This document shows positions 57,710 to 58,672 of a stretch of 64,000 nucleotides of DNA, one piece after another (the stretch's first letter is position 1; every line of letters starts with the position of its first letter). The position numbers and the translations under genes were made by a program. The stretch is from Escherichia coli. Lineage in GTDB: Bacteria; Pseudomonadota; Gammaproteobacteria; Enterobacterales; Enterobacteriaceae. The stretch is taken from the NCBI RefSeq assembly GCF_003334305.1, contig NZ_QOWS01000006.1; one strand, written 5' to 3'. Under the pieces are notes generated by a model that saw nothing but the letters and a program-made list of their open reading frames with translations, made no database searches and had not been told where the DNA came from.

Positions 57710-58636
57710 TCAGCATGACGCATTTGAGAATGTTGAATTTACAATTGCCGACTCGGGCACGGCGGTAAGCCGCCAGTTTTTGACGGCTGACTGAAGGATT
57801 TGCTCGACGCTGAAATCCTGCCAGTGTGCTTCTGCCTGCTGCCCCAGAAATTGAAGTGCCGCGATTAGTACCGGGCGTGGATCGCCTTTCGGCAACGCAG
57901 GCGCATGATTCTGCTTGGAAAGTTTAGCGCCTTGTGGATTAAGCGCCAGCGGCAGATGAATGTAATCTGGCACTTTCCAGCCAAAAAGCTGGTACAGCGA
58001 GATTTGCCTTACTGTTGGTTCAATCAGATCAGCCCCACGCACTATTTCTGTAACGCCCTGGAAATGATCATCAACCACAACAGCCAGGTTGTAGGCGAAC
58101 AACCCATCACGGCGATGAATGATAAAATCTTCCCGTGCCAGTTTTTCGTCGGCGTGAATAATGCCGCGCAGTTGGTCAGTAAATTGCGTGACCGGATGCT
58201 GCTGGCGGATACGCACTGCGGCATTGTCTGGTCCATGATGCAACACCCGGCAATGACCGTCGTAAATACCGCCAATGCTTTGAATACGCGCACGCGTACA
58301 GGTGCAGTAATAACTTAGTCCTTGTTCATGTAACCAGGCGAGTGCTTCACGATAGGCGTGGTGACGTTGCGATTGCCAGAGAACATCGCCGTCCCAGTGC
58401 AGACCGTAATGTTCCAGCTGGCGCAGGATAGTTTCTGCGGCACCGGGAACTTCACGAGGCGGGTCGATATCTTCTATGCGTACCAGCCAGCGACCTTGCC
58501 GGGCGCGAGCCTGCAAATAGCTGCCGAGCGCGGCGATCAGAGAGCCAAAATGAAGCTCGCCGGAAGGAGAGGGGGCGAAGCGGCCAATATACTGTGTGTC
58601 TGTCATCTCTTTGAACAAAAAATAAGGCGGGAGCAT
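57710..58636 (-). CDS. gluQ: glutamyl-queuosine tRNA(Asp) synthetase (truncated GluRS paralogue)
   Basis: 308-aa ORF with class I HIGH-type motif ([10 protein letters not shown]); alternative start at [10 protein letters not shown] (58606) possible, see findings. Confidence 0.9.
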
Positions 58637-58645
58637 TTCCCGCCT
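58612..58645 (-). terminator. dksA terminator hairpin overlapping the gluQ start region
   Basis: Minus strand reads AGGCGGGAAATGCTCCCGCCT followed by TTATTTTTTGTTC; 28-61 nt downstream of the dksA stop. Confidence 0.75.
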
Positions 58646-58672
58646 GTGGTAAACGTGATGGAACGGCTGTAA

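Follow-up and report, generated by a model that had tools for sequence, protein, structure and literature searches.

Introduction

In the rpsU-dnaG and recA-recX operons, which are discussed by Caballero et al. (2012; BMC Microbiol 12:226, PMC3542578), a leaky Rho-independent terminator stands between co-transcribed genes and reduces expression of the second one, whose ribosome-binding site is also poor. The closest described system is the dksA/gluQ-rs terminator of Shigella flexneri characterised in that same study, in which a first AUG of gluQ-rs lies in the loop of the hairpin and a second AUG follows 27 nt after it. The Shigella terminator is the same element as the one found in the 64,000-nt stretch of Escherichia coli DNA analysed here (hereafter the window): gene order and N-terminal protein sequence match, and nothing material differs except that the window is from E. 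coli. What sets this locus apart from rpsU-dnaG and recA-recX is the overlap of its terminator with a start codon that stems from older annotation. Other start misannotations of E. coli that were fixed by N-terminomics or start-site profiling likewise had the upstream ATG of the longest ORF annotated while the protein starts downstream, but the gluQ case was corrected experimentally already in 2012. Furthermore, the structural reason for the gluQ error is unusually clear: the wrongly annotated start sits in the loop of a terminator.

The element is therefore already known, having been characterised in 2012 and re-confirmed by genome-wide datasets, and what remains is a stale start annotation in MG1655 and UniProt. 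The results added here over the 2012 paper are a quantified conservation of the hairpin across gamma-proteobacteria and the absence of a Shine-Dalgarno (SD) motif at the gluQ start. These, together with the hairpin structure itself and the finding that the loop ATG is not conserved, come from the computational analysis described below.

The dksA-gluQ locus and its annotation

The minus strand of the window carries sfsA, dksA, gluQ and pcnB at about 57.7-60.0 kb, in the gene order of E. coli. The dksA CDS (58673..59128, minus strand; 151 aa) ends with the TAA stop codon at 58675..58673; its product matches NCBIfam NF008045 with 346 bits over positions 1-151 of 151, and the same ORF is named dksA in identical RefSeq genomes. 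The supported form of the gluQ CDS, encoding GluQ-RS, spans 57710..58606 (minus strand; 298 aa plus stop). PGAP models in RefSeq genomes, including identical ones, give gluQRS as 897 nt and 298 aa with the downstream ATG as the start, whereas K-12 MG1655 b0144 retains 927 nt and 308 aa, as does UniProt P27305 (308 aa). The start of this longer, legacy model is the ATG at 58634..58636 (minus strand). The 'annotated gluQ start' named in the original prediction is thus that of b0144 and P27305 only and not that of current PGAP. Predictions of 308 aa amount to about 7,400 sequences in two ENA protein clusters. MG1655 coordinates are given here as window position + 101476.

Several lines of comparison locate the N-terminus at the shorter form. 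The chains of PDB entries 1NZJ and 4A91 are 298 aa long from MTDTQ and line up with residues 11-308 of the 308-aa ORF, homologues of GluQ-RS are mostly 295-298 aa, and matches of the profiles TIGR03838 and NF004314 to the long ORF start at residue 11-16. No counterpart of the 10-residue extension was found in homologues or in the crystal structure. A separate observation concerns NCBIfam NF004312 (306 positions), which aligns to residues 5-308 of the 308-aa ORF (57710..58636, minus strand), so that this curated profile takes in the unused N-terminal extension.

Structure of the hairpin between dksA and gluQ

The intrinsic terminator hairpin of dksA occupies 58625..58645 on the minus strand. 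It consists of a 5′ arm, AGGCGGGA (58645..58638), a 5-nt loop, AAUGC (58637..58633), and a 3′ arm, UCCCGCCU (58632..58625), all on the minus strand, and is directly followed by a U-rich tail, UAUUUUUUGUU (58614..58624, minus strand), with 8 U in 11 nt. The stem has 8 bp, six of which are G-C pairs. RNA folding, which had been proposed as a check, recovered the hairpin at -14.5 kcal/mol on its own, and for its 91-nt context the folding energy is -23.6 kcal/mol, with z = -2.84 relative to dinucleotide shuffles. A G+C-rich stem-loop with a U-run right after the stem is what defines an intrinsic terminator, and the placement is also suitable, since the 27 nt from the dksA TAA to the first base of the stem leave the structure clear of a terminating ribosome. 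A consensus terminator scan of 2 kb returned five matches, the dksA hairpin being the strongest, but the scan alone is weak evidence because 2.3 matches are expected by chance. Another predicted hairpin, a weak pairing between the U-tract and AAAGAGAUG, was set aside as it is not conserved in Citrobacter or Enterobacter.

The original prediction had placed the ATG that opens the 308-aa ORF inside the hairpin and a U-run behind the hairpin on the minus strand, and both statements hold; all its coordinates are confirmed, and the U-run corresponds to the tail at 58624..58614. It had also spoken of initiation inside the terminator stem; the ATG is within the hairpin, but it lies wholly in the loop and not in the stem. 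Similarly, the second in-frame ATG does exist at 58604..58606 (minus strand), where it comes directly after the U-tract, but it does not follow the first 'immediately', being 30 nt past it and 18 nt past the stem.

Termination and read-through in published data

Termination, read-through and the lack of a separate promoter are known from published experiments. In S. flexneri, RT-PCR detected a dksA-gluQ-rs co-transcript, and a lacZ fusion without the dksA promoters showed baseline activity, indicating that gluQ-rs has no promoter of its own; deletion of the intergenic region raised reporter activity 10-fold, and mutations in the stem increased downstream lacZ modestly, by more than 2-fold (Caballero et al. 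2012, PMC3542578). The difference between the effects of the stem mutations (about 2-fold) and of the deletion (10-fold) means that some other intergenic feature may also reduce downstream expression. In K-12, RNA-seq by Conway et al. (2014) identified an internal terminator that yields a dksA-specific unit within a read-through ligT-sfsA-dksA-yadB-pcnB-folK operon. The Shigella RT-PCR and the K-12 RNA-seq hence agree on gluQ expression by read-through of the dksA terminator, which the original prediction had described as already reported, and the reporter fusions that it called for exist for Shigella and show a working terminator with read-through.

In supplementary file 3 of Adams et al. (2021), Term-seq of K-12 gives the dominant RNA 3′ end at MG1655 160097 (minus strand), which with the offset of 101476 is window position 58621, in the U-tract at the fourth nucleotide past the stem, with the caveat that Term-seq 3′ ends alone cannot tell termination from exonuclease trimming to a stable hairpin. 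The entry for this 3′ end lists 3.1 million reads, one of the highest counts among the table rows examined, an intrinsic-terminator score of 7.47 (threshold 3.0), and a Rho score of 1.16, the column for a significant Rho termination region reading 'No'. In the same entry, coverage by direct RNA-seq is 250 upstream versus 62 downstream of the 3′ end, which corresponds to read-through by roughly 25% of transcripts, a crude estimate based on steady-state coverage that ignores differences in RNA stability. The pipeline of Adams et al. classes the 3′ end, again in the entry for this locus, as 'internal' to gluQ (+15), a label that results purely from the 308-aa gluQ annotation. In vivo, then, 3′ ends fall in the U-tract without Rho dependence, and disruption of the stem raises downstream transcription. 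Our search of the literature returned no in vitro termination assay of this hairpin with purified RNA polymerase and, on later work about translation or regulation of gluQ-rs, citing reviews only.

A promoter-like site spanning the gluQ start (58615..58586) was considered and rejected. Three such matches were found against 1.9 expected, the Shigella reporter without the dksA promoters gave baseline activity, and the -10 element would lie within the CDS, so that the transcript would have no start codon.

Conservation of the hairpin and of the loop ATG

Comparison across genomes tests the hairpin more stringently than the consensus scan does. One genome per species was scanned using a degenerate version of the GluQ motif FAPSPSGxLHFGSL, giving 120 loci, and dksA was directly upstream of gluQ in 72 sequences, including the window, three E. 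coli records and E. albertii. A first detector, which demanded a perfect stem and a tail strictly after it, scored 24 of the 72 junctions; it missed stems running into the T-run and was replaced by an energy-based detector (a hairpin of -12 kcal/mol or better, then at least 5 T in 8 nt). With the latter, a strong hairpin with a T-tail was found in 33 of the 67 non-Escherichia dksA-gluQ junctions, compared to 1.3 +/- 1.2 in dinucleotide shuffles. The stems read GGCGGGA in Enterobacteriaceae, GGGAGC in Vibrio and Aeromonas, and GGGGCGC in Pseudomonas. As the stem sequences differ between orders, it is the form of hairpin plus T-tail that recurs and not one particular sequence. In two Pseudomonas spp. 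(loci L017 and L072) the dksA-gluQ junction is expanded to about 220 nt, and gluQ is separated from the dksA terminator by an inserted, long and imperfectly palindromic sequence, GGAGCGnGCnTGCTCGCGAA ... TTCGCGAGCAAGCnCGCTCC, that is REP-like in look.

An alignment was built of 11 Enterobacteriaceae junctions, namely those of the window, K-12, three E. coli variants, E. albertii, the divergent E. coli AF16, Citrobacter werkmanii, Enterobacter cloacae, Superficieibacter and Enterobacter sp. Bisph1. Neither of the stem arms nor the downstream ATG varies among them, whereas the loop does so freely (AAATGC, AATTAC, GTTTC, GCCTC, TTTAT). Among the sampled junctions only typical E. coli and E. albertii have the loop ATG; it is missing from five of the six junctions of Enterobacteriaceae that are not of the typical E. 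coli type (E. coli AF16, Citrobacter, the two Enterobacter and Superficieibacter), all of which keep the hairpin. E. fergusonii, too, has the terminator without the loop methionine (Caballero et al. 2012, PMC3542578). Moreover, the spacers between stem and start measure 12, 16, 18 and 21 nt in relatives with a strong scored hairpin and are not multiples of three apart, from which it follows that the ten 'extra codons' are under no coding constraint.

Within E. coli, a 42-nt segment comprising the hairpin and tail is identical in 5,208 of 5,420 complete genomes, and it is unannotated intergenic DNA in the sampled PGAP records. None of the variants sampled in E. coli touches the hairpin: one is a synonymous substitution in dksA, one alters the spacer that precedes the stem, and one converts AAAGAG to AACGAG just ahead of the ATG. 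The 27 nt from the stop codon to the stem are poorly conserved past Escherichia and Citrobacter.

Which ATG is the start of gluQ

The N-terminus of the protein has been determined directly. Edman sequencing of the Shigella protein gave the second ATG as the start, corresponding to 298 aa, the sample being from T7-driven overexpression with the pelB leader replacing dksA and thus not from native expression (Caballero et al. 2012, PMC3542578). For E. coli K-12, the TRAINSPOTTER N-terminomics study (2026) lists for b0144 the peptide MTDTQYIGR with a start site at 160082..160080, and its row for this gene reads '308 -> 298', 'N-terminal truncation (10aa)', as an alternative start site; the row has no Ribo-seq or Ribo-RET support, and the paper itself cautions against over-reading single-proteoform calls. 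Both the Shigella Edman data and the K-12 N-terminomics yielded the downstream N-terminus only, and neither contains an N-terminal peptide from the loop ATG.

GluQ-RS therefore starts 10 codons after the loop ATG, at 58606..58604 (minus strand). This ATG combines a conserved position with an observed N-terminus, while the loop ATG is not conserved, opens an extension without coding constraint and has no observed N-terminus; it is best read as an annotation artefact. The alternative left by the original prediction, a start inside the terminator or one 10 codons later, is in this way settled for the later start by Edman sequencing, N-terminomics, the PDB chains, the PGAP models and the absence of the loop ATG in relatives, the first two being the N-terminal sequencing that it had suggested. 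A hairpin devoid of termination activity together with an unambiguous upstream N-terminus was the outcome named there as contrary, and the published data show the opposite on both counts.

Translation initiation signals

The loop AUG is unpaired, and the sole SD-like sequence that precedes it, AGGCGGG (anti-SD duplex of -6.3 kcal/mol), forms the 5′ arm of the hairpin. Opening the region from -20 to +14 costs about 18 kcal/mol at the loop AUG versus about 12 kcal/mol at the downstream AUG. The downstream AUG has no SD, the best anti-SD duplex being -1.7 kcal/mol at a spacing of 0 nt, and the 20 nt before it are 75% A+U. This agrees with the report that the real gluQ-rs start is without an obvious SD (Caballero et al. 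2012, PMC3542578). Since initiation can proceed without an SD, its absence is no argument against the downstream start.

gluQ starts without an SD in most of the gamma-proteobacteria sampled (dksA-gluQ junctions of loci L004-L123). The median anti-SD duplex of gluQ, taken as the best over all in-frame candidates, is -2.0 kcal/mol and cannot be told apart from that of random coding 22-mers (-2.1 kcal/mol); the median for dksA in the same loci is -7.4 kcal/mol. Of the 36 loci with a strong terminator, 18 have the end of the stem at most 30 nt before the gluQ start. It may be speculated, though we consider this rather doubtful, that the U-rich tail before an SD-less AUG doubles as an SD-independent ribosome-loading platform for gluQ, e.g. 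via ribosomal protein S1; since the intergenic regions are short, the closeness of terminator and start may be mere geometry. If the tail did load ribosomes, the same 30 nt would set both termination efficiency and translation initiation.

Interpretation and alternatives

Taken together, the data very probably reflect a leaky Rho-independent dksA terminator, with gluQ expressed by read-through only and translated from 58606..58604, the loop AUG not being a real start. According to this model, the hairpin and U-tract end most dksA transcripts, and read-through is the sole transcription route to gluQ because the gene has no promoter of its own. On the read-through mRNA, ribosomes start at the AUG at 58606..58604 to make the 298-aa GluQ-RS. 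The loop AUG is a lineage-specific loop sequence; it happens to lengthen the ORF and has an SD-like motif before it, and older annotations chose it for this reason. The stable stem would block its use. By combining a leaky terminator with a start that has no SD, the locus would keep GluQ-RS, the enzyme of tRNA-Asp queuosine glutamylation, far scarcer than DksA, and the arrangement could explain how much less GluQ-RS than DksA is made from one set of promoters. The leaky terminator and weak start suggest that low GluQ-RS output is a selected state. The biological significance is small, and the practical point is one of annotation hygiene, given that b0144 and P27305 keep the 10-residue extension.

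It could be argued that both AUGs are used, with a minor 308-aa isoform made from the loop AUG when the hairpin is melted, e.g. by a transcribing or translating complex, alongside a major 298-aa form. The loop AUG is unpaired and has a much better SD-like duplex than the downstream AUG, the ATG is kept in both E. coli and E. albertii, and the hairpin/tail segment is almost invariant within E. coli. Yet Edman sequencing gave one sequence and N-terminomics the truncated form only, AF16, Citrobacter, Enterobacter and Superficieibacter lack the loop ATG despite having the hairpin, the extension is unmatched in homologues and the crystal structure, and the SD-like motif is locked in the -14.5 kcal/mol stem. 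In addition, the terminated RNA reaches only about 5 codons past the loop AUG, so that initiation there on the terminated majority of transcripts would be wasteful and generate non-stop products. Such dual initiation is very unlikely. We give even less credence to the idea that transcription continues past the site and that exonucleases trim the RNA back to the hairpin, whose role would then be to stabilise the dksA mRNA and not to terminate transcription. The 3′ end in the Term-seq entry is just 4 nt past the stem, nearer than the usual release point, which suggests that at least some trimming takes place, and the method alone does not discriminate between the two. A pure stabiliser does not account for the rise of a downstream transcriptional reporter when the hairpin is removed or weakened (PMC3542578), nor for the four-fold drop in coverage and the intrinsic score of 7.47, with a U-run after the stem, in the entry of Adams et al. 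for this site, and it is the hairpin with its T-tail, not the hairpin alone, that recurs across gamma-proteobacteria.

The terminator might also be a conditional attenuator, riboswitch-like or protein-bound, whose read-through changes between growth phases or under stress. This possibility was raised by Caballero et al. (2012, PMC3542578) themselves; their RT-PCR signal across the intergenic region increased about 20-fold in stationary phase while those of dksA and gluQ increased only 1.3-fold, and the dksA-specific unit rises in stationary phase as well (Conway et al. 2014). End-point RT-PCR is, however, merely semi-quantitative, and other observations do not favour regulation of this kind. 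An Rfam scan of 57500..59500 at E <= 1 returned only a snoRNA-like chance match of 19 bits, and hence no riboswitch or known RNA family, in line with the negative riboswitch search of Caballero et al. (PMC3542578). The 27 nt before the stem show poor conservation past Escherichia and Citrobacter, folding gave no anti-terminator pairing in competition with the hairpin, and a ribosome terminating at the dksA stop codon is too distant to cover the stem. A conditional attenuator is accordingly improbable, and constitutive leakage through the dksA terminator, followed by initiation at the downstream AUG, is the reading that we prefer.

Other features of the neighbouring sequence

Downstream of gluQ, the RefSeq start of pcnB (MG1655 159126, equal to window 57650; 57648..57650, minus strand) is an ATT codon with GAGGTG before it, the known non-canonical AUU start of this gene. 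Because of this ATT start, the list of open reading frames has only a longer, TTG-initiated ORF at 56253..57671. The end of gluQ is overlapped by a promoter-like sequence, TTCTCA-17-TATGAT (57702..57730, minus strand); a start about 7 nt past TATGAT would be window 57695, or MG1655 159171, and matches the pcnB-folK promoter 'S-159171' of Conway et al. (2014). On the other side of the locus, between sfsA and dksA, there is a weak terminator-like hairpin, CTGCTATTTATAGCGG followed by CCTCATTTTT (59176..59198, minus strand). The CTGCTATTTATAGCGG hairpin coincides with an 'orphan' Term-seq 3′ end at MG1655 160652 (window 59176), which is 48 nt upstream of the dksA ATG, and could be either the sfsA terminator or an attenuator in the dksA leader.
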